Positions 40,566-61,657 of a DNA stretch of 64,000 bases are shown one piece after another (position 1 is the stretch's first letter; each line of letters begins with the position of its first letter). The DNA comes from Escherichia coli. Lineage in GTDB: Bacteria; Pseudomonadota; Gammaproteobacteria; Enterobacterales; Enterobacteriaceae. A program made the translations under genes and the position numbers. The notes under the pieces are model-generated. The model did no database searches. It worked only from the letters and a program-made list of their open reading frames with translations, and had not been told where the DNA came from. The stretch is taken from assembly GCF_003991155.1 (NCBI RefSeq), contig NZ_CP031297.1. One strand, given 5' to 3'.

Positions 40566-40616
40566 AGTCGCTCTGCGGCTATAGGTGAGATAGCTGGTCT
40601 CCGAAAACAAACAGCA
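40566..40616 (+). promoter_or_regulatory. Conserved leader element C, copy 1 (hairpin GAGA-TAGCTGG-TCTC + CGAAAACAAACAGCA)
   Basis: Seven related copies, each before a gene block. Confidence 0.45.
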
Positions 40617-40713
40617 TCTAGTCTTATGCCGTATGGCATTACTTAACCCCAAGCCGGGGGCTTCTCCCGGTTTTCGGGTGTTGCCCCTGTTTTTTTTACA
40701 TAGGAGCAACACC

Positions 40714-41034
40714 ATGCACATCATCACTTTCATTGTAGTTCTGCTTGCATCTCTGGGCGCACTGTACGTAGGCGCGAAGGCATTTGCTTTTTCCTTCATC
40801 GTTCTCGCTAAAGTGTTCCAGCGTATCGGTTTGTTCCTTTGGAACAAATTCGCAGTTCCTGCAATGCGGTCTGTACAGGCCGTCATCAAAGAACGTGCTG
40901 CCAAGGCTGAACAAGCCAAAGCAGTCGTTGAACCTGAGGTAACTCAAGTTCAAGAAGTCGCTAAACAAGAACCTGACTGGGATTATCTCGAAATCCCGAC
41001 TTACCTTCGTAAGGGCAAGGAACTTGTTTGGTAA
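40714..41034 (+). CDS. Small membrane protein carrying an FtsZ C-terminal-peptide-like tail (EPDWDYLEIPTYLRK)
   Basis: ATG at 40714 with AGGAG SD; N-terminal hydrophobic 35 aa; C-terminus matches the FtsZ conserved C-terminal peptide (E. coli ...EPDYLDIPAFLRKQAD, from memory). Confidence 0.75.
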   Translation: MHIITFIVVLLASLGALYVGAKAFAFSFIVLAKVFQRIGLFLWNKFAVPAMRSVQAVIKERAAKAEQAKAVVEPEVTQVQEVAKQEPDWDYLEIPTYLRKGKELVW

Positions 41035-41073
41035 TAACTGTCGCTGAGTAATCTTCGACACTTTCAAACCCAT

Positions 41074-41113
41074 CGGGGCAACCATACCCCGACGGGGATG
41101 TTGCCCCTTTTTG
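41074..41113 (+). terminator. Terminator-like hairpin (GGGGCAAC ... GTTGCCCC + TTTTT)
   Basis: GC stem + T-run after gene 40714..41034. Confidence 0.45.
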
Positions 41114-41128
41114 CTTAGGAGCAACATC

Positions 41129-41221
41129 ATGGAAATCGCTATCATCGCTTTGTGTATCCCTGCTGGTTGGGCAATCTCTCGTCCTTTCGTGAGAATCGCT
41201 GAATCGTTCGGTTACTGCTGA
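41129..41221 (+). CDS. Tiny hydrophobic peptide (30 aa)
   Basis: Same TAGGAGCAACAYCATG context as the preceding gene; MEIAIIALCIPAGWAISRPFVRIAESFGYC. Confidence 0.35.
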   Translation: MEIAIIALCIPAGWAISRPFVRIAESFGYC

Positions 41222-41337
41222 TAGTCAACGCAAAGGGAGGGGGCAACCCCTCTCTTTCTGGTCAAGCCTCTGTGGCTTGTCCTCAAAGTCTTCTGGTGTC
41301 AGTTGGCTTTGACGACAAGCTACAGGGGGAATGTCGA

Positions 41338-41523
41338 ATGCAACAGAATCTTCATGTTTACGACGATCACGCAGGCATCATCTATCTGGCTGATGGACGC
41401 GAGGTGAAATTTGATCCGAAACTGTATTCCAGCTCCTACCAGGCGCACAGTGAAGCAGTGAAGTGGGCCAAAGAAACCGGGGTCATTGGTCAAAACGACG
41501 ATGTGGTGATGTTCGTCCATTGA
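41338..41523 (+). CDS. Small hypothetical protein (61 aa)
   Basis: ATG at 41338 with AGGGGGA SD. Confidence 0.5.
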   Translation: MQQNLHVYDDHAGIIYLADGREVKFDPKLYSSSYQAHSEAVKWAKETGVIGQNDDVVMFVH

Positions 41524-41600
41524 GGGAGTAGCCTCCAGGAGAGGCTACTCTCCTCGCTCCTTAAAAGTCTTCTTACTCATGGTGAATACCATCAGTAAGC

Positions 41601-41660
41601 AGATTTTGTTCTCTTCGGAGAGCGAAAAGTGCGATAGCTGGTCGCCAAAAACAAACAGCA
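41601..41660 (+). promoter_or_regulatory. Leader element C, copy 2 (hairpin CTCTTCGGAGAG, hairpin GCGA-TAGCTGG-TCGC, CAAAAACAAACAGCA)
   Basis: Part of a 121-bp block identical to 46436..46556. Confidence 0.5.
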
Positions 41661-41742
41661 AATTAACGTTAATTTACTAGCCCAACCGGGCGCATCCGCC
41701 CGGTTCGGGACGTGGTGCGCCTGTCACAATAGGAGCGCACCT

Positions 41743-42711
41743 ATGTCTCAATACTCTCAATTCTCAGTAAGCAAGGTTTTCGGTATGCCCAGCATTCCGG
41801 AGAAGGTAACGGCCATCGGCTACGCTGACGGTTCAAACCCTTTCATCCCTGCCACTGATACCAACTACGTTTTCCGCAAAGAGTTTCTGCGAGAGGTCTT
41901 GGCCTATCTCAAAGAGCCTGGCGGTGACGCATTGTTCGTAACCGGCCCTACCGGGTCTGGCAAAACCTCAGGTATCACCGAGATCGCTGGTCGTCTCAAC
42001 TGGCCTGTTCAGCAAATCACTGCCCACGGGCGGATGGAGCTGACAGATCTGATTGGACATCACGCTCTGGTCGCGGAAAAGCCTGGTCAACCACCTGTCA
42101 TGAAGTTCATGTATGGACCTCTGGCAGTCGCTATGCGTGAAGGTCATCTGCTCCTCATCAACGAGGTGGATTTGGCCGACCCTGCCGAGCTGGCTGGTCT
42201 CAACGATGTCCTTGAAGGGCGTCCCCTTGTGATCGCTCAGAATGGCGGGGAAATCATCAAGCCGCACCCGATGTTTCGTGTGGTCGTTACTGGTAACTCT
42301 ACGGGGTCCGGTGATGCTTCTGGTTTGTACCAGGGGGTGATGATGCAGAACCTCGCAGCTATGGATCGCTATCGTTTCACCAAAGTAGGGTATGCGGATG
42401 AGGAAGCTGAACTCAGCATTCTTGGCCGTGCTACTCCGAAACTTCCGGAAAATGTGCGGAAGGGAATGGTTCGGATTGCTAATCAGGTCCGCAAACTGTT
42501 TCTTGGCGAAAACGGTGAAGATGGTCAGATCAGCGTCACCATGTCCACTCGGACGTTGGTGCGTTGGGCGAAACTGTCTCTAGCGTTCCGTGGTGCCCCA
42601 AATGCTCTTGAATACGCCTTGGATCAAGCTCTGCTTATCCGTGCGGCCAAAGAGGAGCGTGAAGCCATCCTGCGTGTTGCGAAGGATGTGTTCGGGGACC
42701 AATGGCGCTAA
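41743..42711 (+). CDS. AAA+ ATPase, MoxR/CobS-like
   Basis: Walker A GPTGSGKTS; Walker B LLLINEVD; 322 aa. Confidence 0.85.
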   Translation: MSQYSQFSVSKVFGMPSIPEKVTAIGYADGSNPFIPATDTNYVFRKEFLREVLAYLKEPGGDALFVTGPTGSGKTSGITEIAGRLNWPVQQITAHGRMELTDLIGHHALVAEKPGQPPVMKFMYGPLAVAMREGHLLLINEVDLADPAELAGLNDVLEGRPLVIAQNGGEIIKPHPMFRVVVTGNSTGSGDASGLYQGVMMQNLAAMDRYRFTKVGYADEEAELSILGRATPKLPENVRKGMVRIANQVRKLFLGENGEDGQISVTMSTRTLVRWAKLSLAFRGAPNALEYALDQALLIRAAKEEREAILRVAKDVFGDQWR

Positions 42712-42721
42712 GAGGTGACGC

Positions 42722-43630
42722 ATGAAGAAAAATGACTGTTTGTGCCGTCGTTACACTGCTAAAGAGTGGGGCAATGACGAAACCACAATAGAAGTCTTCA
42801 TTGGCTACAAGTTGCTCCGGGAGCCCAGCTCCTCGGAGCCAGGCCAATTCACGATGGTCGAGCTACGCCGAACCGTCACTGATGGGAAAGCTGAAAATTG
42901 GTCTGAGACAAAGCTCGAAGGACCTTTTGAAGCTAACGGCCCAGACACGATCCCAATGTCCTACAAGGACAAAGAAAGCCAGTATGTGTCACAGTTTCTC
43001 AGCCAGGGGTACACCTTTCTGGATGAGGTGCTGGTAAACGCAGAGACACAGACGGTGCTGGAAGGGGGGAATGTTTCAGCCGGACAAACAGCCAGCTTGG
43101 GATCTCTCAACTGGCTGTTATCTCCGCCCTCTGAGTTACCTCCAGGTGACATAAACCTCTTCAAAGGTTTTGTTGCTGGGGTTTTTGCCAAAGGAGCCGG
43201 TTTAATCGGCTTTGAGGTTGCTCGGAGCGAAGGCTCAAATGACTTGCTACCCAGTGTGCTGATGCGTACTGACAGCGGTTATGAGCTTGGGGTTAGCACT
43301 GGACTAGGCGAAAACACTATCCATCCAGCTACGCTGGAAGGCGCTGGTGAACTCCGCCCGGAACATGGTCACAAACCCCTGCTGATGTTGGTTTACCTGC
43401 AACAGCGTTTCGCGGATGACTTTTCAAACGTAGAGAAGCCGCTGGTGGCATTCTGTGATGAACAGGGTGATACCTTCGACTACGAGCGTTTTGATTCACT
43501 AAAACCCCTCATTGAACGGTTTGGTTTCAGCTACGACGAAGTAAGAGCAGATGCAGAAAGGCTTGGCCTTGTATCTGAGCTGATTCGCCTGGCAGAGATC
43601 GACGCCGAACAAGAGGATCACTTTTTTTAA
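42722..43630 (+). CDS. Hypothetical protein
   Basis: AGAGGTGA SD; 302 aa. Confidence 0.8.
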   Translation: MKKNDCLCRRYTAKEWGNDETTIEVFIGYKLLREPSSSEPGQFTMVELRRTVTDGKAENWSETKLEGPFEANGPDTIPMSYKDKESQYVSQFLSQGYTFLDEVLVNAETQTVLEGGNVSAGQTASLGSLNWLLSPPSELPPGDINLFKGFVAGVFAKGAGLIGFEVARSEGSNDLLPSVLMRTDSGYELGVSTGLGENTIHPATLEGAGELRPEHGHKPLLMLVYLQQRFADDFSNVEKPLVAFCDEQGDTFDYERFDSLKPLIERFGFSYDEVRADAERLGLVSELIRLAEIDAEQEDHFF

Positions 43631-43675
43631 CCCTTACGGGGGCTTGCTCCCCGAAAGGGGCGTTGGCCCTCTCCA
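43629..43675 (+). repeat. Intercistronic GC-hairpin element (AACCC-N-CGGGGG...CCCCG type), example 1
   Basis: Starts at the preceding stop codon; one of at least 17 similar elements between genes from 43.6 to 63.8 kb. Confidence 0.6.
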
Positions 43676-43693
43676 AATAACTTGGAGGTCATG

Positions 43694-44221
43694 ATGTCTA
43701 AAGGCGTCAACAAAGTAATTCTGGTCGGTAATCTCGGTTCTGACCCGGAAATTCGCTACATGCCAAGCGGCACTGCCGTTGCCAACTTCAACGTTGCAAC
43801 AACGGATACGTGGCGCGATAAGCAGTCTGGCGAGCAAAGAGAGCATACTGAGTGGCACCGTATTGTGCTTAAAGGTCGTTTGGCGGAAGTCGCTGGTGAG
43901 TACCTGAAAAAGGGCTCCCAAGTCTATCTCGAAGGGAGCAACCGCACCCGGAAGTGGACTGACAGCCAACAAATCGAGCGCTACACCACCGAAGTACACT
44001 GCGTTGAAATGCAGATGCTTGGTGGTCGTGGAAATGCACCTCAGGACAACTCTCAACGTGCAGCGCCCCAAAAAGGGCAACGTACAGGAGCCGGTACGCA
44101 ATCTGCTCCTGTGCAGCAATCAGCACCGCAAGGTGGTATGGGCGGAGGCTATGGTCCCGCTCCTGATGGCTGGGATGATGACATCCCGTTCATGCGGCTG
44201 CACCACTTGGCTGGCGGGTAA
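43694..44221 (+). CDS. ssb: Single-stranded DNA-binding protein
   Basis: OB-fold N-terminus, Gly/Gln-rich linker, acidic tail DDDIPF. Confidence 0.95.
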
Positions 44222-44238
44222 CACCGCCAACTCTTACT

Positions 44239-44284
44239 AAACCCCACGGGGGCACTCATGCCCCGAGGGGGTCATGGTGTCCTC
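44239..44284 (+). repeat. Intercistronic GC-hairpin element, example 2 (CATGGTGT pairs with ACACCATG at the recT start)
   Basis: Upstream segment is complementary to the SD/start region. Confidence 0.6.
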
Positions 44285-44315
44285 AAACCGTTCATTCGTG
44301 AATTGGAGAAACACC

Positions 44316-45305
44316 ATGTCTGATAACAAATCTCTTGTAACCCGTATCGCAAGCCGGTTTGGCGTGGACACCCGAAAGTTCTATGAAACTTTGAAGGCGA
44401 CCGCATTCAAGCAGCGAGATGGAAGTGCCCCGACCGATGAGCAGATGATGACGCTCCTGATCGTGGCTGAACAGTACGGTTTGAACCCTTTCACTCGGGA
44501 AATCTATGCGTTTCCTGACAAGCAAAATGGGATCATTCCGGTAGTAGGTGTTGATGGTTGGAGCCGCATCATCAACGAGCATCCCCAGTATGATGGCGTC
44601 GAGTTCGTGTATTCGGACAAGATGGTCAGAATGCAGGGGGCGAAAGTTGACTGCCCTGAGTGGATTGAATGCGTGATTTACCGTAAGGACAGATCTCGCC
44701 CTATCCGCATCAAGGAGTTCATTGATGAGGTGTACCGTGAACCGTTTCAGGGTCAAGGTCGCAATGGTGCTTACACTGTTGATGGCCCCTGGCAAACGCA
44801 CACCAAGCGTCAACTCCGGCACAAGTCGCTGATCCAGTGTTCTCGTGTCGCATTTGGTTTCTCTGGTATTTATGACCAGGATGAAGCTGAACGCATCCGT
44901 GAAATGGAGCAGGCATCGGCCATTAACCCGGCTATTGCCAATCTCCCTTCACCATCTCAAGTTCAAAGCCAAGAGCCTTTGGCTATTGAGCACAAAGAGC
45001 TTGACCCGATCCTAACCAAACTCGCAAATCGCGCCATTGCTGAAAACGCATGGTCTGCGGCGCATGAGTATGTGAAGGGACGGTATGAAGGTTCGGAACT
45101 GCAATATGCGACTCAATTCCTTCGTGACAAGGAGATGGATCAAATGGAGCCTCCGAAACCTGACTACCAGGAAGCGCACGAGCAAGAGTCCGCCGCTGGT
45201 GGTTCTGCAAATGCTGAACCTGGTGCCGAAGAAATGCCGCCTTTGAGTGACGAGGACATGATCCCTGTTACAGAAGAGGAGGGCGCGGAAGGCAGTTACT
45301 ACTAA
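44316..45305 (+). CDS. recT: RecT/Red-beta-like single-strand annealing protein (tentative family assignment)
   Basis: ATG at 44316 with GGAGA SD; followed by YqaJ-type exonuclease; acidic C-terminus. Confidence 0.7.
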   Translation: MSDNKSLVTRIASRFGVDTRKFYETLKATAFKQRDGSAPTDEQMMTLLIVAEQYGLNPFTREIYAFPDKQNGIIPVVGVDGWSRIINEHPQYDGVEFVYSDKMVRMQGAKVDCPEWIECVIYRKDRSRPIRIKEFIDEVYREPFQGQGRNGAYTVDGPWQTHTKRQLRHKSLIQCSRVAFGFSGIYDQDEAERIREMEQASAINPAIANLPSPSQVQSQEPLAIEHKELDPILTKLANRAIAENAWSAAHEYVKGRYEGSELQYATQFLRDKEMDQMEPPKPDYQEAHEQESAAGGSANAEPGAEEMPPLSDEDMIPVTEEEGAEGSYY

Positions 45306-45346
45306 CCCCAACGGGGGGGACTCCCCCGCTGGGGGAGATCTCCCTC
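45303..45346 (+). repeat. Intercistronic GC-hairpin element, example 3
   Basis: CGGGGGG-act-CCCCCG hairpin then GGAGATCTCC palindrome. Confidence 0.6.
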
Positions 45347-45367
45347 CTAACCATTGGAGAGAGGTCC

Positions 45368-46378
45368 ATGAAAATAGTCAACCTATCGCAACGCGAGGAA
45401 GATTGGCTTGATTGGCGGCGTCAAGGTGTAACAGCCACTGACGCCGCTATCCTGCTCAATCGGTCTCCGTACAAAACACGATGGAGACTGTGGGCCGAGA
45501 AGACTGGGTATGCGCGTGAAGTCGATCTGAGTCTTAATCCGCTGGTTCGCCGGGGGATAGAAAACGAAGATGCTGCAAGACGCGCTTTCGAGGAGAAGTA
45601 TGATGACATGCTGCTCCCCGCCTGTGTCGAATCGGTTCAATACCCGCTCATGAGGGCCTCCCTGGATGGCCTGAGAGATAACGGGGAGCCCGTCGAGCTG
45701 AAAAGCCCGAGTGCGACTGTCTGGGAAGATGTTTGTGCTGAGAAAGCAAACAGCAAGGCATACCAGCTTTATTACCCGCAGGTGCAACACCAGCTCCTGG
45801 TAACGGGGGCCAAGCAAGGCTGGTTAGTCTTCTACTTTGAAGGTCAGATTCAGGAGTTTCCAATACTCCGAGACGAAGCCATGATTCAAGAAATCTTGGC
45901 CGAGGCTAAAAAGTTCTGGCAACAGGTAGTAGACAAGAAGGAGCCCGACAAAGATCCAGAGAGAGACCTGTACATACCGCAAGGTGAAGAGGTCAACCGT
46001 TGGATTGCTGCTGCTGAGGAATACCGCCTCTATGATGCAGAGATTCAGGAGCTGAAACAGCGACTGTCTGAGCTTCAAGAAAGGCAAAAGCCTCATCTCG
46101 ACACCATGAAGTCCCTCATGGGGGAATACTTCCATGCCGACTACTGCGGTGTGATGGTAACGAGATACAAAGCGGCTGGCCGGGTAGACTACAAAAAGCT
46201 GTTGGCTGATAAGGCGTCAGGCGTGAAGCCTGAGGATGTTGACCAGTACAGAGAGAAGTCATCAGAGCGGTGCCGTGTAACGGTTACTGGCTCTGTGAAG
46301 CCACGGTACATTGTTGATGAGGACGTGCTTGCTCCTCTTGATGATTTGCCGGAAGAAGTAGAGACGTTCTACTGGTGA
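45368..46378 (+). CDS. YqaJ-like recombination exonuclease
   Basis: N-terminal TATDAAILLNRSPYKTRWRLW pattern; 336 aa. Confidence 0.8.
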   Translation: MKIVNLSQREEDWLDWRRQGVTATDAAILLNRSPYKTRWRLWAEKTGYAREVDLSLNPLVRRGIENEDAARRAFEEKYDDMLLPACVESVQYPLMRASLDGLRDNGEPVELKSPSATVWEDVCAEKANSKAYQLYYPQVQHQLLVTGAKQGWLVFYFEGQIQEFPILRDEAMIQEILAEAKKFWQQVVDKKEPDKDPERDLYIPQGEEVNRWIAAAEEYRLYDAEIQELKQRLSELQERQKPHLDTMKSLMGEYFHADYCGVMVTRYKAAGRVDYKKLLADKASGVKPEDVDQYREKSSERCRVTVTGSVKPRYIVDEDVLAPLDDLPEEVETFYW

Positions 46379-46435
46379 GTGGGGGATTTTCCCCCGCTTT
46401 CCCTTGGGGATTCTGGGAGTCTCCAACGGAAAGCA

Positions 46436-46495
46436 AGATTTTGTTCTCTTCGGAGAGCGAAAAGTGCGATAGCTGGTCGCCAAAAACAAACAGCA
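46436..46495 (+). promoter_or_regulatory. Leader element C, copy 3 (identical to copy 2)
   Basis: 121-bp identity with 41601..41721. Confidence 0.5.
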
Positions 46496-46577
46496 AATTA
46501 ACGTTAATTTACTAGCCCAACCGGGCGCATCCGCCCGGTTCGGGACGTGGTGCGCCCCCAACTTTTTGGAGTGCATC

Positions 46578-47855
46578 ATGACTAAAGTGAACCATCTACA
46601 AAGCCTCTGTGTTATCCACGTAGACTTTGACATCTGGAGTGGACAAACCCGTTTGTCTGCATCTGATCTCAAGCTGGGCGAGGGTGGTGAAATTCCACCT
46701 GAGAAAGTAGCTCAACTGGGAAGTAAGAAGATCTGTGATCCGGCTAAGCTGAAAGGCTTTCATCGCCTGAAAACAGAAACTCGTCGCCTCCTGCTGAAAT
46801 TCGGTATGCCGTTCATGAACGGATTTGCCGTACCCGTCAGCAAGACCGATGAAATCTGTAACAAGCTGAATGACATCAACTTTCAGTTTAACCAACTGAA
46901 ACAGGATTTCATCAAAGGTTACAACAAAGCCGTGGATGAATGGTGTCAGGAGAACCCTGAGTATGAACGAGCTATCCGTGCCGGAGCCCTTCCAAAGGAA
47001 ACGGTCGAGGAGCGGATTGGCTTTGAGTACCAGGTGTTCATGATCCAGCCTGTGAACGAAGATGAGGCCAACGCCAAACGCCTTAACCGCAAGGTTGAGC
47101 GCCTGGGTGACGATCTCATCTCCGAAGTGGTTCAGGAAGCGAATAAGTTCTATATGGAACGTTTGGCCGGTCGAGACCAATGTGCGGTCACTACTCGGCA
47201 GACACTCCGTAACATCCGCGACAAGGTGGATGGGCTTAGCTTCCTGAACAGCGCTTTTAACCCTCTGGTCAAGCTGCTCGACCAAACCCTCCGGGGATAC
47301 GAGCAACATGCCGATGGCCGAAACATCGTTGCGCCTTTCTTTTATCAGGTCGTGGCCGCAGTGCTGATCATGAGCGAGAGGGACCGCATCGAGCAGTATG
47401 CCAATGGCTCGATTACTGTAGAGGGCATGGCTAATGACATTGGCGGTTCGGGAGCCCAGATGGGGGACCGTTCTAAAGATGAAAAGGCCGAACAGAAAAG
47501 CGATAAAGCCGGTGAGCTTATCCCTGCAACAGAGGGTGGCGAAACCAAGCAGCAACAGGTAGGTGGTACTGAATCTGTTCAATCAGAACAGACTAACAGC
47601 GGTGGTAACTCTGTTGACCTGGATGAAGACATCGACAACTTCTTCAAGAGTTTTGCAGAACGAGGCGAGGGTGAATCGGAAGATGAATCCAATGCCGGTG
47701 ATGTGGTTCGAGAAGAGCGTGTTGATGTTGAGGATGAGCTGGTTTTGCCTGAGGAAACTCCGGTAGAGCAAGAGCCTGTCCAAGAGGAGACGACAGAGGA
47801 GCCTCTCAACCAGGAGCTGCCTAAAACTGACGACGATGGCGACTATTTCTTCTAA
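46578..47855 (+). CDS. Hypothetical protein with acidic C-terminal tail
   Basis: ATG at 46578 with GGAG SD; 425 aa. Confidence 0.8.
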   Translation: MTKVNHLQSLCVIHVDFDIWSGQTRLSASDLKLGEGGEIPPEKVAQLGSKKICDPAKLKGFHRLKTETRRLLLKFGMPFMNGFAVPVSKTDEICNKLNDINFQFNQLKQDFIKGYNKAVDEWCQENPEYERAIRAGALPKETVEERIGFEYQVFMIQPVNEDEANAKRLNRKVERLGDDLISEVVQEANKFYMERLAGRDQCAVTTRQTLRNIRDKVDGLSFLNSAFNPLVKLLDQTLRGYEQHADGRNIVAPFFYQVVAAVLIMSERDRIEQYANGSITVEGMANDIGGSGAQMGDRSKDEKAEQKSDKAGELIPATEGGETKQQQVGGTESVQSEQTNSGGNSVDLDEDIDNFFKSFAERGEGESEDESNAGDVVREERVDVEDELVLPEETPVEQEPVQEETTEEPLNQELPKTDDDGDYFF

Positions 47856-47939
47856 TAGTCACTTCAACTAAACCGACCCGGAGGGGATAGCCATTCCCTC
47901 CAGGGGTGGACTATCTCCTTCCCTACCAGGAGAAAAGAT

Positions 47940-49736: not shown

Positions 49737-49753
49737 CAGGAAGTGAAACGACA

Positions 49754-49787
49754 AACGGCTATCCCTTCGGGGGTGGCCGTTTTTATT
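49754..49787 (+). terminator. Possible intrinsic terminator
   Basis: ACGGC...GCCGT stem with inner CCCTTCGGGG, followed by TTTTTATTT. Confidence 0.4.
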
Positions 49788-49797
49788 TGGAGAGTCT

Positions 49798-50133: not shown

Positions 50134-50145
50134 TGCGTCTTTGAG

Positions 50146-50178
50146 CTTTGCACCCGAAAAGGGCAGTTTGAGCGTTCC
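50146..50178 (+). promoter_or_regulatory. Motif B (GCACCC-GAAAA-GGGC ... TTTGAGCG), copy 7
   Basis: Stem GCCC/GGGC with GAAAA loop. Confidence 0.4.
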
Positions 50179-50267
50179 TGTTCACACAGCTCTCGTGGAA
50201 CAATCAAAGTGAGGAGGGAATACCCTCCCACTTTCTCAGAGGCCTTCATTGAGGGTTGCTGAGAAAG

Positions 50268-50327
50268 TGAATTTTGTCCTCTCTGAGGGCGAAACGTGCG
50301 ATAGCTGGTCGCCAAAAACAAACAGCA
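50268..50327 (+). promoter_or_regulatory. Leader element C, copy 4
   Basis: CCTCTCTGAGGG hairpin, GCGATAGCTGGTCGC hairpin, CAAAAACAAACAGCA. Confidence 0.5.
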
Positions 50328-50937: not shown

Positions 50938-51027
50938 ATCGCCGTTCAACCATTAACCCTAATTAACCCTATGGGGCTCCGATAGCCCTGAGGGGACGGG
51001 GCTCCGCAATCGCAATAAGGAGTCCCT

Positions 51028-53669: not shown

Positions 53670-53673
53670 TCCT

Positions 53674-53949: not shown

Positions 53950-54006
53950 CCCACGGGGCCGCTCTTCCTGATGGGAGACGGTCCTCCATTCTCAAAGGAG
54001 AAGACC

Positions 54007-54198: not shown

Positions 54199-54266
54199 CT
54201 ATGACTGTAACCCCACTGGGGGCTTCATGCCCCTGTGGGGGCATGGTGCCCGTAAAAGGAGTCACC

Positions 54267-54620: not shown

Positions 54621-54645
54621 CCCCCTGCTTTCCCAGTGGCATCGA

Positions 54646-54661
54646 CTTTCACATGTGAAAG
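54646..54661. promoter_or_regulatory. Palindrome CTTTCACATGTGAAAG (copy 4)
   Basis: Exact copy 20 bp upstream of leader element C copy 5. Confidence 0.5.
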
Positions 54662-54681
54662 TTTGTGCCCCTCGGAAAGCA

Positions 54682-54741
54682 AGATTTTGCTCTCTGTCGA
54701 GAGTGAATAGTGAGGTAGCTGGCCTCCCCAAACAAACAGCA
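54682..54741 (+). promoter_or_regulatory. Leader element C, copy 5 (stems CTCTC/GAGAG and GAGG/CCTC)
   Basis: Stem sequences differ from other copies while base pairing is kept. Confidence 0.5.
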
Positions 54742-54811
54742 TTCTACATAACCCTTGGGGGATCACTGCCCCTCGGGCTGGTGGTTCCCTGACAAACATG
54801 GAGCCACAACT

Positions 54812-55156: not shown

Positions 55157-55164
55157 GCAATCTA

Positions 55165-55233
55165 CTAACCCTAAACCGGGTGCATCCGCCCGGTTCGGGA
55201 CGTGGTGCGCCCCCAAACTATTTGGAGTGCATC
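55165..55233 (+). repeat. Intercistronic hairpin/leader identical over about 60 bp to the leader at 46498..46577
   Basis: CCGGGYGCATCCGCCCGGTTCGGGACGTGGTGCGCCCCCAA...TTGGAGTGCATC shared. Confidence 0.6.
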
Positions 55234-55536: not shown

Positions 55537-55613
55537 GAACCACTTTAAACCCATCGGGGCCATTACTTCCCGATTGGGACGGTAGTGGCCTCTCAACCGA
55601 AAGGAGAGAGCTC

Positions 55614-57239
55614 ATGGCTACTATCGTAAACACCAAGTTAGGAGAACATCGAGGCAAGAAGCGCGTCTGGCTGGAAGGCCAAAAGCTACTGCGTGAAGGT
55701 TACTATCCTGGCATGAAGTATGATCTGGAGCTGAAAGATTCCCAGGTTGTGCTTCGCGTCAAAGAGGAGGGTAAGTTCACCATCAGTAAGCGTGAGCGCA
55801 ATGGCCGGGTGTCTCCAATCATCGATCTGACCGTGCAGGAGCTTGCTACCGTTTTTGACGGTGTAGAGATGCTCCGCGTGTTCATCCGTAACGGCGCAAT
55901 TGTGATCTCTGCTCACCATCAACAAGAGCGAGTGATCGAGCGCGTCAACCGGCTTATCAGTAAGCTGGAGAATGGAGAATCGCTTTCGGTATGCAGCCTC
56001 TTTCATGGGGGTGGTGTGCTTGATAAAGCGATTCACGCCGGTTTTCACAAGGCGGGAATTGCCAGTGCCATATCTGTGGCCGTGGAGATGGAAGGGAAAT
56101 ATCTCGATTCGTCTTTGGCAAATAACCCGGAGCTTTGGAACGAAGATTCTATTGTTATCGAATCGCCAATCCAGGCTGTGAATCTCAGCAAACGCCCACC
56201 ACAGGTGGATGTTTTGATGGGGGGCATACCGTGTACCGGCGCGTCAAAGTCAGGTCGCAGTAAGAACAAGTTGGAGTTTGCCGAATCGCATGAGGCGGCA
56301 GGTGCCATGTTCTTCAACTTCCTGCAATTCGTAGAAGCGCTAAACCCAGCCGTTGTGCTGATTGAGAACGTGCCTGAGTACCAGAACACCGCTTCGATGG
56401 AAGTGATTCGTTCGGTGCTCTCTTCGTTGGGTTACTCCCTACAAGAGCGCATTCTCGACGGCAATGAGTTTGGGGTTATTGAGCGCCGCAAGCGTCTTTG
56501 TGTTGTTGCGCTTTCCCACGGGATCGACGGGTTTGAACTTGAGAAGGTTCAGCCTGTTCGCACCAAGGAAAGTCGCATACAGGACATCCTGGAGCCAGTT
56601 CCGCTCGATTCTGAACGTTGGAAGTCATTTGACTATCTGGCTGAGAAGGAGTTGAGAGACAAAGCTGCTGGCAAGGGGTTCTCTCGCCAGCTTCTGACTG
56701 GCGACGATGAGTTTTGCGGCACCATAGGTAAGGACTATGCAAAATGCAGAAGTACCGAACCTTTCATTGTTCATCCAGAACAGCCGGAGTTGTCTCGCAT
56801 CTTTACACCGACAGAACATTGTCGAGTGAAAGGGATACCAGAGGAACTCATCCAAGGTCTGTCGGACACTATTGCCCACCAGATTCTCGGGCAATCGGTA
56901 GTCTTTCCCGCGTTCGAGGCTTTAGCCCTCGCATTAGGGAACAGCCTGTGGAGCTGGGTTGGAATGATGCCAATCATGGTCGAAGTCGTGGATGAATCAC
57001 AGCCGGTGATCGGTGGTGAAGACTTCCATTGGGCAACGGCATTGGTTGACGCAAAGGGCACTCTCAAGCTGTCACCGGCAGCGAAAAAACAGGGGATGCC
57101 CTTCAACATTATGGATGGTCAATTGGCTGTCTATTCACCTAACGGAACTAAAAAGAGCTGCGGCCATGAGCCTTGCGAATATCTCCCGGTAATGATGTCC
57201 GGAGACGCAATCATGGTCACTTCATCTTTGGTTCATTAG
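55614..57239 (+). CDS. DNA (cytosine-5)-methyltransferase-like protein with N-terminal AbrB/MazE-like domain (paralog of 3591..5018)
   Basis: Motifs LFHGGG (I), GGIPCTGAS (PC), ENVPEY (ENV), RRKRLCVVA (VIII), LGQSVV (X). Confidence 0.85.
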   Translation: MATIVNTKLGEHRGKKRVWLEGQKLLREGYYPGMKYDLELKDSQVVLRVKEEGKFTISKRERNGRVSPIIDLTVQELATVFDGVEMLRVFIRNGAIVISAHHQQERVIERVNRLISKLENGESLSVCSLFHGGGVLDKAIHAGFHKAGIASAISVAVEMEGKYLDSSLANNPELWNEDSIVIESPIQAVNLSKRPPQVDVLMGGIPCTGASKSGRSKNKLEFAESHEAAGAMFFNFLQFVEALNPAVVLIENVPEYQNTASMEVIRSVLSSLGYSLQERILDGNEFGVIERRKRLCVVALSHGIDGFELEKVQPVRTKESRIQDILEPVPLDSERWKSFDYLAEKELRDKAAGKGFSRQLLTGDDEFCGTIGKDYAKCRSTEPFIVHPEQPELSRIFTPTEHCRVKGIPEELIQGLSDTIAHQILGQSVVFPAFEALALALGNSLWSWVGMMPIMVEVVDESQPVIGGEDFHWATALVDAKGTLKLSPAAKKQGMPFNIMDGQLAVYSPNGTKKSCGHEPCEYLPVMMSGDAIMVTSSLVH

Positions 57240-57299
57240 TAACTCACCGGGGCAATGCCGAAAGGCCTTTGCTCCGGCCTATCCGAAAGGAGAGTAATC

Positions 57300-57731
57300 A
57301 TGAAAATCGAAACTGTTGTGCCTTTACCTCCCGAGGATTCAGGCCTTCAACACTGCATTGCCAGGTTCCATAACCGCAACATGGATTCCAAGCGAAAAGA
57401 CAAGACCCGTTTTTTCAGGAGGGAGCCGGTTATGATCGTAAACCCAGAGACCAAAGCAAAGGTTCTCCGGTATGCGATGGGCAACCCTGGGAATTTATCC
57501 ATCACAAAGCTGGCGGTCGCGCTGGATTACGATGCGGTAGATGCTCTGGGTGTTCGTTTTAAAGACACTGTAAATCTTGAGGTTCGCAGAGCCAGGCGCT
57601 GGGAAGTCTGGCAGTGGTTCTGGAACCATCCGGATCAAAGTGTCCAACTGTCAATCAAATTGGGCGTGGTTGGCGCTGTGTTGGGAGTCATGGGCTTCCT
57701 GACTGGCGTAGCTCCGTACCTCTTGGGATAA
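57300..57731 (+). CDS. Hypothetical protein with C-terminal TM helix
   Basis: ATG at 57300 with AAGGAGAG SD. Confidence 0.7.
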   Translation: MKIETVVPLPPEDSGLQHCIARFHNRNMDSKRKDKTRFFRREPVMIVNPETKAKVLRYAMGNPGNLSITKLAVALDYDAVDALGVRFKDTVNLEVRRARRWEVWQWFWNHPDQSVQLSIKLGVVGAVLGVMGFLTGVAPYLLG

Positions 57732-57804
57732 ACCAATAAAGCCGTTAACGGGCAATGTAAGTCCGGAGACGGCTTGCATTGCTCTCTCGAAAGTGGAGAG
57801 TCAA

Positions 57805-58359
57805 ATGAACACATTAGAACAACTTGTAAATCAGAGAGTGCTTGAGGAAGGTCTGAAAAAGGCGAAGCCATTGGCCGCGCAAATGGGGCTTGAATCTGTA
57901 CCTGATGAGATGCTTGAAATGATCTGCCCAAACTTGAACTACTCTGGGCAGTTTACGCCAGCTCTGTACGCGAGATTTCAAAGCGTAAAGCGATTACTGA
58001 AAGAGTTGTCGGAACAAACCTCACCTAAGCACGGGCATATTGTGAAGTTTACCAACCAATATGGGAGCTACGATGAGTCAGCTTTGCTGTTCAAAGAAGG
58101 CGACGTCAGAAACCAGAACTTGGTTGCTTGTGTGGGCGGGAAGACGATAAATCTCGGAGAGCTAGAGCTTCGAGATTATGGGCTCAATATGCACATCGGT
58201 TGCGGTGGACCATTTGAGCCGATCTCAGAAGCGCAGATTCAGTCCTTGTCTGAGTTTGACTTCTATGAGACGACCTACAGATTCTGGGGCCAGAATCCAT
58301 GTGGAAACGGGATGATAGACATCACCGTCCCTATGAAACGTTGGTTCTTGACTGTGTAG
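57805..58359 (+). CDS. Hypothetical protein
   Basis: ATG at 57805 with GGAGA SD. Confidence 0.75.
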   Translation: MNTLEQLVNQRVLEEGLKKAKPLAAQMGLESVPDEMLEMICPNLNYSGQFTPALYARFQSVKRLLKELSEQTSPKHGHIVKFTNQYGSYDESALLFKEGDVRNQNLVACVGGKTINLGELELRDYGLNMHIGCGGPFEPISEAQIQSLSEFDFYETTYRFWGQNPCGNGMIDITVPMKRWFLTV

Positions 58360-58454
58360 CTTCAACCTGAGTGCGCCGAGAAATCGGCGTACCGGCCCCT
58401 TAAAAAGGGTAATCAGCGCAGGGGGAAACCCCGCGCTTTCCCAAGCATCTCGGT

Positions 58455-58523
58455 TTCCCAGGGTGCTTCGGAAAGTGCCTTAGGCGCTCAAGTGCGGTAG
58501 CTGGCTGCCAAAAACAAACAGCA
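58455..58523 (+). promoter_or_regulatory. Leader element C, copy 6
   Basis: GCGGTAGCTGGCTGCCAAAAACAAACAGCA. Confidence 0.45.
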
Positions 58524-58591
58524 AATTATCAACCCTGACGGGAGCACCTCCTGTTAGGGGGGCTCCGTCATAAACTGAACGGAGATATAGC

Positions 58592-58978
58592 ATGTCTAAA
58601 AACGTCAACGATGTTTTTTCAAACCGAACTTCTTTGGAATGTACTGTGAATGCAGCGCTGGATCGTCGTATCGGTCTGCGTGTCGGGTTCCCTCATTACA
58701 GAGAAGGAGCAAACGGTGTGGTTTGTGAGATCGAAGCAGAGTACCCATTGCTCAACACTCATTCGAGTGTTGCATGGCCCCTGCTCGATGAACTCAACAG
58801 TTACACCATCCAAAAAAACCAATCGCTCATTGATCACATTGATAATGCGGTCGCTGAACTGTTGAAACACAAGGCTCGTCTACAGCTTGATATTCAAAAG
58901 CTGCAAGACGGTGACATTGATCTGGTGAAACAGGCCAAGCAGCAATACGAAGACAACCAGATGTCGAGTAGCAGCTAG
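58592..58978 (+). CDS. Hypothetical protein
   Basis: GGAGA SD; 128 aa. Confidence 0.75.
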   Translation: MSKNVNDVFSNRTSLECTVNAALDRRIGLRVGFPHYREGANGVVCEIEAEYPLLNTHSSVAWPLLDELNSYTIQKNQSLIDHIDNAVAELLKHKARLQLDIQKLQDGDIDLVKQAKQQYEDNQMSSSS

Positions 58979-59065
58979 TTCAGGTCTGATAGCCAGGATT
59001 CAATTTTAACCCTACCGGGGTGCTTTCCCGGAAGGGATGGGCACCCTGCTAATCCAGGAGGCCCT

Positions 59066-61519
59066 ATGCAACAAACATTAAACTTTGATCTATCAGAACA
59101 ACCCATCCCAGTGCTTTTGCGTGGGGATAAGTGGGATTCTGTTTGGTCAGAACTGACTGATAACGAGGATTTGAACTTCGTTGATGCCAGTAGAGGAACC
59201 AGTCTGTCATCGTTGATCACGTCATCGGTTGAGTCCATTCACACGGCCTTAATTGATGGGTGGACCATGATGATCGGCTATTCCAGTGGTAAAGATTCTG
59301 AAACGGTCTTGCACCTGTTCCTGATGGCCCTGATCCGGGCTGTAAGGAGTGGGGCGACCATCAGCCAGCACCACTTCATCTTGCACACTGACACACTGAT
59401 CGAAAGCCCAGAGGTAAGGTGGCTGGCGGATCAGAAACTGGCCGAGCTGGAGCGTTTCATTGCGAAGGAAAACCTTCCTCTGACCATCGTTCTAGCAAAG
59501 CCTGGGATCTCGCAGAGTTGGACGGGCCGAATCCTTACTGGGAGGGGGTTGCCTACGTTTTCCAACTCCACGGCCCGCCAGTGTAGCCAGGATTTAAAAA
59601 TCACCTCTGCCAAAAGAGCGAAGGCAGCTTATATGCGAGAGCTTCCCAAAGAGGTTCGACAGAAAGTCTGCCTTTTGCTGGGCAGTCGTGATGCTGAAAG
59701 CACTATTCGTGCGGCCAACATTGCAAAACAGCGAGGAAGCTCAGATCGCGTCATTAAGACGAAAGATGGGGGTGAGCTGTATGTGGTGAAAAACTGGTTG
59801 GCGAGTGATGTCTGGGAGTTCTTACTATCCGCTGGCATGGGCTCAGCATATCCTCTGCCAAGTTACTTGGAGAGCAATGTCACTACGGCAGAGCTTTACA
59901 AGGCGGCAACAGGGGAGTGCGTGTGGTCGGCAACAGAGAAGAAGGCCAGTGACGCCTGTGGCGCTCGCTTCGGTTGCTGGGCTTGCCAGGCTGTTGGGTT
60001 GGATAAGTCAATGGAGACGTTGCTTGCCACGGACCCTGAAAGGCATGGCTATATGTCGGGGCTGAACCGCATCCAGCGCTACTTGGCAAAACGCCGGTAC
60101 GCATGGGAAGACCGCCATCCCGTAGGTCGAACGATTTACGAGGGCGGATACATCAAAATACAGCCGGACGTTTACAGTCCTGTTTTCCTAGAACGATTGC
60201 TTCATGTCTGTTGCAGCATGGACTACATGGAGCAAAAGAGAGCTGATGAGCTGGCATACAAGCTGGCTACTGGTCAAGCAGAGGATAACGACTGGAACCG
60301 TCGAATGGCAGAGCCACAATTCCGGATCATATCGGAAGAGGCTTTAGTCCATATCGACTTCATGTGGGCCTTCCATCATTTCAATGATAAGCCTTTCCAT
60401 GCCCTGGAGATTTACCACAGGGTTTGGTCGATGGGTGATCTGGACTTGCTGGAAGACGAGCCGCAGTGTGAAACCGTTCCTCAGTCACCAATTCCGAAGC
60501 CATTGTGGTTGAAGGTTGGTCGCTGGGGCGATGGTTCGCTTTCTGATGGCTTGGCCGATCCGTTAGCGGAAATGGCTTACTTTGACGGCGGGGATGACCC
60601 GTTGGCAGCGCAAGTGATCAATACCGCAGACGGAAAGAGAAGGGTGGTTTGCTTCGCAGAAGATGATGAAGTGAAAGTCGATCCCGACTCCGCTGCGTTC
60701 ATCATCTGGAACGAATACCCGCGACTAAGGGAGTCTGTACTAAAGGGACATTATACGCCCGGTAGTGCAGCGCAGTTCTACCTTCGGTTCGGAGCAATCC
60801 AGCTTGCGAAAGGAAAAGGCGCTTTGTATCACCGTATGATGCAAAGAGGTCAAACCTACCACCAGATGGGCCTTACAGGGCTACAGACGATGGAAGGAAT
60901 CCAACAGCGCAAGGATGTCAAAGTGCTTAGCGATGCTAAGTACAAAGATCTGGTGAAGCGAAAAATCAAGGGAAGACTGGCAACGGTACGCTGGTGGGTC
61001 AACTTGCACTTAACGTTCAAGTACCATCTGCACCACCGTACTCCGACGGGGTTGTTCATCGAGAAGCAACTTGACCAGGAAGCAATGGAAGAACAGAAAC
61101 GGCATCAGGAGCGATGGTTTAACTACGTGACTGACGCGATGCTTTGTTACTCCAGCGCATTCTGTATGAGCGTCATGGAAGGGCGAGAGGGGAGCGGAAA
61201 CGCCAACATTCGTCGTTACATGGCCGCGACCAGAAGGAAGGCTTATACGGCCCTCTGCGAGCTCTTGGACAATACTGACGCCCAGTGGATGAATGATGTG
61301 GTCCAGAGTGCCGTAGGGCAGTATGAGGCGATACAGGCAGCCCTAACCGAAGGTTCCGCGCTTGCTATCTATCTCGACTGGATCAACCTACTGTCAAAAC
61401 GCCATCCAGCCTCTTTGGAGCGACATGTCAGAACGATGATCAAGGCGGTTCAACGCTTACATCGCCGCGACGACACAGAGTTGCAAAGAGGACAGCAAGG
61501 CTTGTCCTTGGCCGCATAA
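59066..61519 (+). CDS. PP-loop ATP pyrophosphatase family protein (PAPS reductase/DndC-like N-domain) with long C-terminal extension
   Basis: 817 aa; PP-loop IGYSSGKDS; Cys cluster CGARFGCWAC; AGGAGG SD. Confidence 0.85.
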   Translation: MQQTLNFDLSEQPIPVLLRGDKWDSVWSELTDNEDLNFVDASRGTSLSSLITSSVESIHTALIDGWTMMIGYSSGKDSETVLHLFLMALIRAVRSGATISQHHFILHTDTLIESPEVRWLADQKLAELERFIAKENLPLTIVLAKPGISQSWTGRILTGRGLPTFSNSTARQCSQDLKITSAKRAKAAYMRELPKEVRQKVCLLLGSRDAESTIRAANIAKQRGSSDRVIKTKDGGELYVVKNWLASDVWEFLLSAGMGSAYPLPSYLESNVTTAELYKAATGECVWSATEKKASDACGARFGCWACQAVGLDKSMETLLATDPERHGYMSGLNRIQRYLAKRRYAWEDRHPVGRTIYEGGYIKIQPDVYSPVFLERLLHVCCSMDYMEQKRADELAYKLATGQAEDNDWNRRMAEPQFRIISEEALVHIDFMWAFHHFNDKPFHALEIYHRVWSMGDLDLLEDEPQCETVPQSPIPKPLWLKVGRWGDGSLSDGLADPLAEMAYFDGGDDPLAAQVINTADGKRRVVCFAEDDEVKVDPDSAAFIIWNEYPRLRESVLKGHYTPGSAAQFYLRFGAIQLAKGKGALYHRMMQRGQTYHQMGLTGLQTMEGIQQRKDVKVLSDAKYKDLVKRKIKGRLATVRWWVNLHLTFKYHLHHRTPTGLFIEKQLDQEAMEEQKRHQERWFNYVTDAMLCYSSAFCMSVMEGREGSGNANIRRYMAATRRKAYTALCELLDNTDAQWMNDVVQSAVGQYEAIQAALTEGSALAIYLDWINLLSKRHPASLERHVRTMIKAVQRLHRRDDTELQRGQQGLSLAA

Positions 61520-61520
61520 A

Positions 61521-61550
61521 AAGCCCTCCTTCGGGAGGGCTTTTTCTTTT
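61521..61550 (+). terminator. Intrinsic terminator (AGCCCTCC-ttcg-GGAGGGCT + T-run)
   Basis: Perfect hairpin + TTTTTCTTTT. Confidence 0.75.
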
Positions 61551-61580
61551 GCACCCCAAAAGGGCAATTACAGCGTTTTA
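61547..61580 (+). promoter_or_regulatory. Motif B (GCACCCC-AAAA-GGGC ... TTACAGCG), copy 8
   Basis: Immediately after terminator. Confidence 0.4.
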
Positions 61581-61599
61581 CCCTTTTAGGTGGCTGTCA

Positions 61600-61657
61600 T
61601 ACTCTTTGTTCATTGTCAGCGCTTGCTGGCTATAACGGTAGCTGGCCCAAAACAGCA
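61600..61657 (+). promoter_or_regulatory. Leader element C, copy 7 (divergent)
   Basis: GGTAGCTGGCCCAAAACAGCA. Confidence 0.35.

Follow-up and report, generated by a model that had tools for sequence, protein, structure and literature searches.

One of the described systems closest to the element treated here is the tisB +42 mRNA. Its 5' H-type pseudoknot binds protein S1 and the 30S subunit and, with a single-stranded region, is placed about 100 nucleotides (nt) ahead of a ribosome-binding site (RBS) that is sequestered (Romilly et al. 2019/2020; PMC6690012, PMC7708055). S1 binds H-type pseudoknots with nanomolar affinity, and the pseudoknot of timP is related (PMC11228461). Here we describe a hairpin-pseudoknot module that recurs in front of successive gene blocks in a 64,000-nt stretch of Escherichia coli DNA (contig NZ_CP031297.1), which we refer to as the window. 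The 22 kb of the window that hold the module (40000-62000) are 100% identical to many IncC (IncA/C2) conjugative plasmids; 943 plasmid records, typed MOBH / MPF_F, match this part. A window coordinate equals the position in plasmid record NZ_CP082173.1 minus 31963. Unless a strand is given, all features below lie on the + strand.

The repeated hairpin-pseudoknot module

The initial annotation had reported seven copies of a leader element between about 40570 and 61600, and all seven are present at those sites within the window. The tail pattern CAAAAACAAACAGCA, allowing up to three mismatches, gave 12 matches where 2.75 were expected, a number reached in none of 100 shuffles, and the six best matches (0-2 mismatches) fall on the sites that had been named. 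A repeat finder recovered a 69-nt family with four copies and a 39-nt family with six copies at the same places. As had been proposed, we built a covariance model, here from six copies, and in the search the source copies scored 63-89 bits (E 1e-14 to 1e-21). The degenerate copy 7 (61608-61662) scored 17.4 bits with this first model and 27.8 bits (E 3e-4) with a second model, R2. On the complete 173.5-kb plasmid, the covariance model found exactly eight copies, all on the + strand and all between 72.5 and 96.7 kb of the record. The eighth (NZ_CP082173.1 96684-96748) lies 0.7 kb past the end of the window, 77 nt upstream of a 48-codon gene. The copies are confined to the accessory region activated by AcaCD, where they lie on the gene strand in unannotated gaps. 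Among 60 listed of the 870 plasmid records that carry the element, none has an annotated feature under the match. Co-oriented genes lie 3' of every copy, and the blocks preceded by the element do include ssb (43691-44221) and a cytosine methyltransferase gene (55614-57239), as had been claimed.

Each module spans about 60-65 nt and consists of a first hairpin (hairpin 1, H1), a gap of 3-4 nt and an H-type pseudoknot of about 30 nt, behind which comes a stretch poor in G and rich in A. The element had originally been described as two hairpins with a conserved loop and a conserved tail. The second hairpin stands, but hairpin 1 is longer than was thought, and the loop and tail are not independent of each other. 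Four base pairs of free sequence form the stem of the second hairpin, and a U·G pair closes it, replaced in some relatives by U-A or C-G. Its loop, UAGCUGG, pairs with the tail, CAGCA, through GCUG:CAGC, and it is this pairing that makes the pseudoknot. Stem 1 thus comprises 5 bp, loop 1 a single A and stem 2 4 bp; loop 2 has no nucleotides, and loop 3, the strand that joins GCUG to CAGC, is an A-rich segment of about 10 nt (CNAAAACAAA). Hairpin 1 of copies 2-5 has a stem of 10 bp (UUUUGYUCUC/GAGRGYGAAA), two of them G·U, that differs among these copies in a compensatory way.

Two types of copy can be told apart. The leader-type copies (1 and 7) have a distinct hairpin 1, that of copy 1 being UUAGUCGC...GCGGCUA, and begin a few nt from a mapped transcription start site (TSS). 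The internal-type copies have one or two strong stems on their 5' side, the last of which, P0, has arms CUUUCC and GGAAAG flanking a variable insert. P0 is followed by an A/U-rich stretch (AGAUUUUG; in AUUUUG, AGAUUUU or CGGUUUU forms) that is at the same time the 5' arm of hairpin 1. Regarded as terminators, the P0 stems are strong and the U-run (AUUUUGUU) begins 1-3 nt beyond the stem; a terminator scan made no call there.

The leader-type hairpin 1 of copy 1 (40560-40586; core UUAGUCGC-UCU-GCGGCUA by RNA folding) starts at about +3 to +7 of the mRNA, and the pseudoknot next to it (40587-40616) has stem 1 GAGAU/GUCUC, loop A-GCUG, loop 3 CGAAAACAAA and partner CAGC. The pseudoknots of copies 2-6 are each supported by the model and by covariation, and the P0 stems of copies 2-6 by RNA folding. 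In copy 2, P0 (CUUACUCA...UCAGUAAG, then CAGAUUUUG) occupies 41572-41599, the internal-type hairpin 1 41604-41627 (10 bp with a UUCG loop, from RNA folding and the model) and the pseudoknot 41631-41660, with stem 1 GCGAU/GUCGC. Copy 3 has P0 GCUUUCC...GGAAAGC at 46396-46434, with a G+C hairpin directly 5' of it (46381-46395), hairpin 1 at 46439-46462 and the pseudoknot at 46466-46495. In copy 4, P0 (CACUUUCUCAG...CUGAGAAAGUG) lies at 50229-50269, and hairpin 1 (50272-50294), which carries a compensatory change from U-A to C-G relative to copies 2 and 3, precedes the pseudoknot at 50298-50327. Copy 5 combines P0 GCUUUCC...GGAAAGC with an inner hairpin (54626-54681), hairpin 1 (54686-54707; RNA folding and alignment) and a pseudoknot with stem 1 GAGGU/GCCUC (54712-54741). 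The P0 of copy 6 (CUUUCC...GGAAAG) spans approximately 58436-58475; its hairpin 1, placed by alignment, is short (UGCC-UUA-GGCG, 58476-58487), and stem 1 of its pseudoknot (58494-58523), GCGGU/GCUGC, includes one G·U. Copy 7 begins with hairpin 1 GUCAGC-GCUU-GCUGGC (61615-61630) at about +4 of the mRNA and continues with the degenerate pseudoknot CGG-UAGCUGG-CCC-AAAA-CAGCA (61636-61657), in which stem 1 and loop 3 are short.

The copies are mosaics. Window positions 41601-41721 (copy 2) and 46436-46556 (copy 3), which comprise the element and the untranslated region (UTR) downstream of it, are identical over 121 nt; this stretch contains hairpin 1 of copy 3. Between copies 2 and 8 the identity covers about 112 nt, made up of the upstream stem and the element (L003:46648-46760 and L003:23528-23640), and a piece of the downstream UTR recurs without the element, at 98% identity, before vcrx108 (55174-55216). 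This pattern suggests gene conversion or recombination between junction cassettes. Near-identical copies of this kind are likely substrates for recombination by the plasmid Bet/Exo proteins and for module shuffling. A third small hairpin, NGCC-GUAU-GGCN, follows the leader-type copies, at 40626-40639 in the window and in L006, L010, L047, L053 and L056. Its stem covaries among lineages (AUGCC/GGCAU, CGCC/GGCG, GCGCC/GGCGC and ACGCC/GGCGU).

Relatives, covariation and transcription

We gathered relatives of the module in three ways: from a plasmid collection, with the CobS-like protein encoded 3' of copy 2 as an anchor, and by a metagenome scan. The CobS-anchored scan of a genome collection covered at least 35 loci, a sample outside which the bona fide SXT/R391 integrative and conjugative elements lie. 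We obtained 60 model matches, 39 of them distinct, and all are on the strand of the flanking genes. Their hosts are IncC plasmids, pAQU-type Vibrio plasmids, elements of the Pseudoalteromonas/Rheinheimera type, Comamonas, Marinobacter, Modicisalibacter, Eoetvoesiella, Pseudovibrio and two metagenome-assembled genomes. The 39 distinct copies are thus spread over conjugative elements of alpha-, beta- and gammaproteobacteria.

In an alignment of these copies, 99.7% of the pseudoknot pair cells hold standard pairs. The second-stem covariation that had been noted within the window (GCGA/UCGC, GAGA/UCUC and GAGG/CCUC) is correct, and relatives bring the number of stem variants to at least 10; every cell of stem 1 is paired, and four of its five pairs have changed on both sides. 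Stem 2 was absent from the search model. It is paired in 99.4% of cells, with a single mismatch and a single G·U, and changes on both sides affect two of its four pairs, through swaps from G-C to A-U that occurred twice per pair in different lineages (L006:38708 and L047:9172; L047:14877 and L055:9857). Hairpin 1 is paired in 82.6% of cells, in a part of the alignment that is imperfect, and all 10 of its pairs have changed on both sides. As a control, we slid the partner strand by 1-3 columns, which left 21-57% of cells paired. The loop, stem 2 and the A-rich strand of loop 3 are near-invariant and the sequence of stem 1 is free; a loop and tail that vary so little would fit recognition of the RNA by a factor.

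The cells of hairpin 1 include 65 G·U against 8 A·C, and the fold therefore exists on the sense strand only. RNA folding of the 65-mers gave -15.5 to -21 kcal/mol. Folding with DNA parameters gave -6 to -8 kcal/mol (z -0.5 to -1.7), which does not differ from shuffles. Of the readings first offered for the element, that of a structured RNA leader is borne out by covariation in the two hairpin stems and in stem 2, by the sense-strand fold, by the weak DNA fold and by the position of the copies in transcripts. We conclude that the element is a conserved, cis-acting module of transcribed mRNA, and we consider it highly probable that it is a functional sense-strand RNA structure.

Searches for divergent or previously catalogued forms returned little. 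When the stem 2 positions were left free, the metagenome scan yielded only GCUG/CAGC forms, together with one CAGU, and random A-rich hits. Rfam 15 gave no hit at gathering score in the whole window, and none of the 10 weak hits at E<=10 in 40400-62000 overlaps a copy. In distant relatives (L012:7076-7140, L013:6996-7060 and L012:14550-14600; Thiocapsa marina), the stem 1 hairpin is kept with a UAGCUGG or UCGCUGG loop, and an inserted G+C hairpin takes the place of the A-rich strand before ACAGC. This form may be a variant pseudoknot with a structured loop 3.

Work on pVCR94, a near-identical plasmid, places the copies in transcripts. Immediately 5' of copy 1 (P_vcrx087) and copy 7 (P_vcrx114), that plasmid has both a mapped start and an AcaCD site found by chromatin immunoprecipitation with exonuclease treatment (ChIP-exo); upstream of copy 4 (P_vcrx098) it has an AcaCD site but no mapped start. 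The operator of P_vcrx087, outside the repeat, is at 40496-40524 (pVCR94 motif 65019-65047; TSS 65081-65083, about 40558-40560 in the window), that of P_vcrx098 (GCACCCGAAAAGGGCAGUUUGAGC) at 50146-50174 (motif 75267-75295, a ChIP-exo peak), and that of P_vcrx114, a pattern match, at 61544-61573 (motif 86650-86678; TSS 86713-15, about 61610-61612). Copies 1 and 7 begin 3-7 nt after mapped TSSs, the TSS of P_vcrx087 being 3-7 nt 5' of copy 1, and a leader-type hairpin stands behind an AcaCD-like box in six other lineages too. AcaCD boxes are present 5' of copies 1, 4 and 7 alone and are missing at copies 2, 3, 5 and 6; between vcrx087 and vcrx128 of pVCR94 the only AcaCD sites are at vcrx087, 098, 114 and 128.

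RNA-seq of pVCR94 gave about 0-50 units for vcrx087-125 in an acaCD deletion, compared with hundreds to about 11,000 when AcaCD was induced. Roy et al. obtained vcrx087, vcrx089 and bet amplicons from cDNA primed in vcrx094; therefore one transcript spans copies 2 and 3. Later work with ChIP-exo and Cappable-seq found only 18 AcaCD-responsive promoters, and the pVCR94 RNA-seq levels show no jump or consistent rise 3' of the internal copies. Canonical + strand terminators occur only at the ends of the first two AcaCD units, at 49753-49790 (a 13-bp stem with 7 G-C pairs and a T-run) and at about 61519-61551 (a terminator-like hairpin with a T-run, under a weak terminator-type Rfam hit at 61518-61552). 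The arrangement is thus one of three AcaCD-driven units, with a copy in each leader and further copies at long internal junctions.

A second repeat family in the window, GTGCCCAAAATGGGC..TTACAGC, is the published AcaCD operator (GCCCNDWWWGGGC). Its sites are at 18252-18277, 28842-28867, 35868-35903, 40499-40524, 50146-50174 and 61544-61573. Four of the six match published ChIP-exo sites, upstream of traN, vcrx087, vcrx098 and vcrx114, and those at 18252 and 28842 are at the positions expected for vcrx068 and dsbC by coordinate offset only. In a single-copy lacZ reporter, P_vcrx087 was reported to be constitutive and also AcaCD-responsive, which contrasts with the near-zero RNA of vcrx087-095 when acaCD is deleted from the plasmid. 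This discrepancy could stem from silencing in the plasmid setting or from control after initiation.

From upstream of traI, the window takes in the tra operons and traN (35949-38756) and then enters the accessory region. Here lie five "host defence evasion" (hde) genes, vcrx089-093, which encode the CobS-like ATPase, vcrx090, ssb, bet and exo; 3' of them are DUF3150 and VWA genes, the cytosine methyltransferase gene and a large PAPS-reductase-like gene. Divergent from copy 1, on the - strand (39781-40419), is acaB, a DUF1845 activator of acaDC of the ribbon-helix-helix type. In the lineages sampled through the CobS-like anchor, acaB and a neighbour of 282-297 amino acids are kept upstream of the first copy of the element.

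Possible roles of the module

The module keeps its distance from translation starts. In the window, 63-97 nt separate the end of the pseudoknot from the first start codon of the block. In six other lineages, the end of the model match and the called start are about 60-100 nt apart in 17 of 18 cases and 159 nt apart in the remaining one, and the intervening sequence differs; the 65-nt model match extends 5 nt beyond the pseudoknot, and the start codons are gene calls. The starts of the accessory region are strongly folded. The minimum free energy (MFE) of the start region (-60 to +20) has a median of -28 to -30 kcal/mol there, the other 35 genes in the window having a median of -15.5 kcal/mol. 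In the starts of the accessory region the Shine-Dalgarno (SD) sequences are paired, and genes after an element have a median local MFE of -29.7 kcal/mol and an SD unpaired probability of 0.34. This contrast between 40500-64000 and 1-38000 suggests region-wide translational damping or coupling. The 36 nt that follow stem 1 are 42% A and 12.5% G, against a background of 25.5% G; part of this stretch is used in the pseudoknot, and in copies 2, 3 and 8 it contains a weak A/U hairpin.

Our favoured reading, which we hold tentatively and by analogy with tisB, is that the module serves as a ribosome standby or entry platform. Nearly every gene of the region would have its SD locked in a strong hairpin. 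For closely spaced downstream genes, that hairpin would be opened by the terminating ribosome, but not so for the first gene after an untranslated gap of 190-265 nt, and it is the genes beyond such gaps that have the module in front of them. There, as in the tisB +42 mRNA, the 30S subunit would be captured via S1 by the pseudoknot and the single-stranded stretch beside it, and the captured 30S could enter the start site as the hairpin breathes. Early loading of ribosomes would restore the coupling of transcription and translation and would thereby lessen Rho-dependent polarity in operons of about 10 kb. A universal partner such as S1/30S would also explain conservation over three proteobacterial classes.

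Several observations count against a standby platform. S1 has no known need for a fixed sequence, yet GCUG/CAGC, the A of loop 1 and the A-rich strand are almost invariant, a conservation that would suit a sequence-specific partner or ligand better than S1. Folded starts are found at almost all genes of the region, and SD accessibility differs only slightly (0.34 vs 0.46). RNA-seq, which is silent on translation, shows no consistent rise after internal copies. Finally, the constant spacing could reflect a conserved UTR cassette that was copied between sites, given the identities of 112-121 nt between copies 2 and 3 and between copies 2 and 8.

Other structures also lie near the translation starts of this region. 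A "strong translational attenuator" upstream of bet has been documented for SXT and noted in IncA/C, according to a summary of Garriss et al. 2013 in PMC4542580. A third repeat family in the window, CCCC..GGGG..CCCC..GGGG, stands directly 5' of start codons, with alternative registers that can free or bury the SD. Its sites are at 41063-41098, 44237-44272, 50965-50995, 54209-54239, 55544-55579 and 63737-63767. The site at 44237-44272, directly upstream of bet at the place reported for the SXT attenuator, is probably its IncC counterpart. Between vcrx087 and vcrx088, an unannotated 30-codon open reading frame (ORF; MEIAIIALCIPAGWAISRPFVRIAESFGYC, 41130-41222) looks like a small membrane peptide, and it shares the start region AGGAGCAAC-N-ATG with vcrx087.

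The ribosome standby reading competes with the idea that the module acts by itself in the nascent RNA, either as a put-like element that reprograms polymerase or as a minimal class of riboswitch or operator, and so gates the establishment regulon. We regard such a self-sufficient effector or sensor as possible but doubtful.

The more specific proposal of a processive antitermination or anti-polarity RNA, acting on RNA polymerase like HK022 put or Tn916 canT, seems to us unlikely. The nascent hairpin and pseudoknot would bind polymerase and make it resist both P0 with its AUUUUG stretch and Rho, and each block would re-arm the enzyme. A two-helix architecture of about 65 nt right after a promoter is that of putL; the A-rich strand is of the kind that would form base triples in compact pseudoknots, and put RNA contains a triplex. 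Transcripts do cross at least two junctions with a stem and U-run at little loss in RNA-seq. RNA antiterminators that act in cis are known from Gram-positive conjugative elements, and polymerase as a universal partner fits both the spread over three classes and the invariant nucleotides. The HK022 genome, however, has no match to the model, and no Rfam family corresponds. As put acts over more than 10 kb without re-loading, eight copies would be superfluous, and the P0 stems, 1-3 nt from their U-runs, are not called as terminators. The pVCR94 RNA-seq drops from vcrx095 to vcrx097 (3015 to 1372 to 56), and here a canonical terminator follows the vcrx095 homologue, which is at odds with a polymerase that has been strongly modified. 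Nor would antitermination lead one to expect a constant 63-97 nt to the start codon.

A role in RNA processing or stability is likewise unlikely in our view. Cleavage of the long AcaCD transcripts, perhaps by RNase E at an A/U-rich site of the RN-WUU type between P0 and H1, would leave an upstream piece that ends in a protective P0 and a downstream piece that begins, like the primary transcripts, with H1 and the pseudoknot and is shielded from decay that depends on the 5' end. This would agree with what the leader and internal types have in common, which is only a hairpin directly followed by a pseudoknot, starting at the TSS in the leader type. It would also agree with the constant position of internal copies behind one or two strong stems and then AGAUUUU or CGGUUUU, and six of eight operon starts called by Rockhopper coincide with a copy (vcrx089, 094, 098, 107, 112 and 114). 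A stabiliser, though, needs structure rather than sequence, yet stem 2, the loop and the A-rich strand are near-invariant while stem 1 is free, and the spacing to the start codon is left unexplained.

Rather improbable is an operator for a single trans partner, whether an RNA-binding protein encoded by the element or a small ligand bound in the manner of preQ1-I, that would co-regulate all blocks. Near-invariance of the loop, stem 2 and loop 3 next to a covarying stem 1 is the usual signature of a recognition surface, and the same site before every block would allow coordinate control. In size and topology the module resembles the smallest pseudoknot aptamers, which are about 30 nt long and combine a 5-bp stem with a short second stem and a 3' strand rich in A. 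Against this, no preQ1 or other riboswitch matched in Rfam at E<=10, and loops 1 and 2, of 1 and 0 nt, leave little room for a ligand pocket. PHROGs searches with 20 unknown ORFs of the region gave no useful match and revealed no recognisable RNA-binding protein. For an RNA partner in trans, we found no sense-oriented complement of the tail or loop elsewhere on the plasmid; the only complement was the opposite strand of the elements themselves. The site, moreover, is 60-100 nt from the RBS rather than over it.

Readings at the DNA level are, taken together, highly unlikely. The first, which the initial annotation had entertained as a promoter that folds in single-stranded DNA during transfer, is a signal in the transferred strand that would serve in the recipient as a Frpo-type promoter or for priming (an ssi site). 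DnaG starts at the trinucleotide CTG, which the loop contains, and a toprim-domain protein is encoded near the element blocks. The blocks hold genes for early establishment (anti-restriction, ssb, bet/exo and methylases), and the element is strand-specific and recurs every 3-5 kb. We nevertheless give it very little credence. It is the coding strand, not the template strand, that folds, and on the template strand the 65 G·U cells become A·C mismatches. The DNA folds are weak and not significantly unlike shuffles, mimics of -35 and -10 are absent, and expression depends on AcaCD. The position is fixed relative to the TSS and start codons, and on the 173.5-kb record the elements, at 72.5-96.7 kb, are at least 73 kb in either direction from mobI at 172.7 kb, upstream of which the oriT of IncC lies.

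The weakest candidate, an ordinary double-strand promoter or a recruitment site of the RfaH/ops type for each block, can be set aside: there is one copy per block and the core GGUAGCUGG resembles ops (GGCGGTAGnnTG) and the first half of JUMPstart, but no copy has a pair of sigma-70-like hexamers, the leader copies lie downstream of the TSS, the genes that copies 2, 3, 5 and 6 precede have no AcaCD site yet stay silent when AcaCD is missing, only 18 AcaCD-responsive promoters have been published, the equivalents of ops G2-G5 vary and covary with the 3' arm (GCGA, GAGA, GAGG, AAGG, ACGU and others), and a phmmer search of all 1583 plasmid ORFs with hand-typed RfaH and NusG queries revealed no homologue of either (best E 0.78).

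We also compared the element with a series of known sites and rejected each identity. For an RfaH/ops site, only UAGC is constant, and the four bases before it take at least 10 forms that covary with the 3' arm; a NusG/RfaH paralogue is lacking. A sigma-70 promoter has no hexamers here, and the GG-N10-GC spacing of sigma-54, checked by eye, does not fit. The likeness of UGCUCUC to lambda nut boxA is partial, lies inside a stem and is missing from the leader-type copies. The element has no evident resemblance to CRISPR repeats of types I-E, I-F, I-C or V-A, as a mimic acting as an RNA anti-CRISPR would, and it lacks the R''/R' core sites of an integron attC-like site.

Significance and comparison with known systems

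The literature that we surveyed on the AcaCD and SetCD regulons, the hde operon and cross-talk with SGI1, together with a review, does not describe the module, and a full-text search with sequence strings of the element returned unrelated primers only. The module is a new RNA motif family of a familiar kind, that of cis-regulatory mRNA structures; its unusual features are that it recurs inside operons and is widely distributed. IncC plasmids rank among the chief vehicles of resistance genes such as NDM and CMY, and the 25-kb region that bears the elements holds functions for surviving restriction and CRISPR in a new host (vcrx089-090, ssb-bet-exo and methylases). How operons of about 10 kb with long, folded untranslated gaps are expressed after initiation is a question that the surveyed AcaCD literature leaves unaddressed. 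One RNA module before every block, kept in Enterobacterales, Vibrionaceae, Pseudoalteromonas, Marinobacter, Comamonas, Alcaligenaceae and Pseudovibrio, offers a testable handle on it. As a standby site, the module would carry a mechanism known from a few toxin mRNAs over to the large operons of mobile elements. Should it instead act on polymerase or sense a signal, it would be a new class of regulatory RNA and the first such described in Gram-negative conjugative plasmids. Either way, it is a candidate for a new Rfam family and could offer a way to attack plasmid establishment.

Set beside known systems, the module differs from Frpo, a long hairpin of the template strand that mimics -35/-10 and lies by oriT; the fold of the module is on the coding strand, far from oriT. 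With ops/JUMPstart it shares the GGTAGC core and a place in the leaders of long, horizontally acquired operons, but the defining upstream bases of ops are not conserved and the structure of the module is too large for a transcription bubble. The attenuator hairpins of the bet-exo genes in SXT/R391 and IncC occur in the same operons and on the same strand, are also repeated and act on translation. These hairpins, of the CCCC/GGGG family, cover the SD, whereas the hairpin-pseudoknot module lies 60-100 nt further upstream. The preQ1-I riboswitch (RF00522) is similar in its size of about 33 nt, its 5-bp stem, the pairing of its loop with a short 3' segment and an A-rich 3' strand that would run along stem 1. 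It differs in that the module has no Rfam hit at E<=10, that its junction loops are too short for the known pocket, and that the downstream genes are unrelated to queuosine.

HK022 put, Tn916 canT and pLS20 conAn2 share with the module a two-helix sense-strand RNA of about 65-70 nt just 3' of the promoter of a mobile-element operon, and RNAs of the put type likewise need no dedicated protein. Put, however, is V-shaped, with two long stem-loops and no need of repeated copies, whereas the module pairs a hairpin with an H-type pseudoknot; model R2, which scores sequence and structure jointly, has no match at E<=1 in the HK022 genome, which carries put.

From tisB, finally, the module differs in dimensions, with stem 1 = 9, stem 2 = 5, loop 1 = 0, loop 2 = 2 and loop 3 = 3 in tisB and 5, 4, 1, 0 and about 10 here, and there is no similarity in sequence or size. 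TisB is also a single toxin gene under an antisense RNA, whereas the module is repeated eight times in long operons, where we found no antisense partner. The likeness is one of architecture and placement. Both are H-type pseudoknots, here with covariation in two stems and, in copies 1 and 7, a position 3-7 nt from the TSS. Both stand about 100 nt upstream of an RBS buried in stable structure, and a universal partner such as S1/30S would suit a module found in many hosts.

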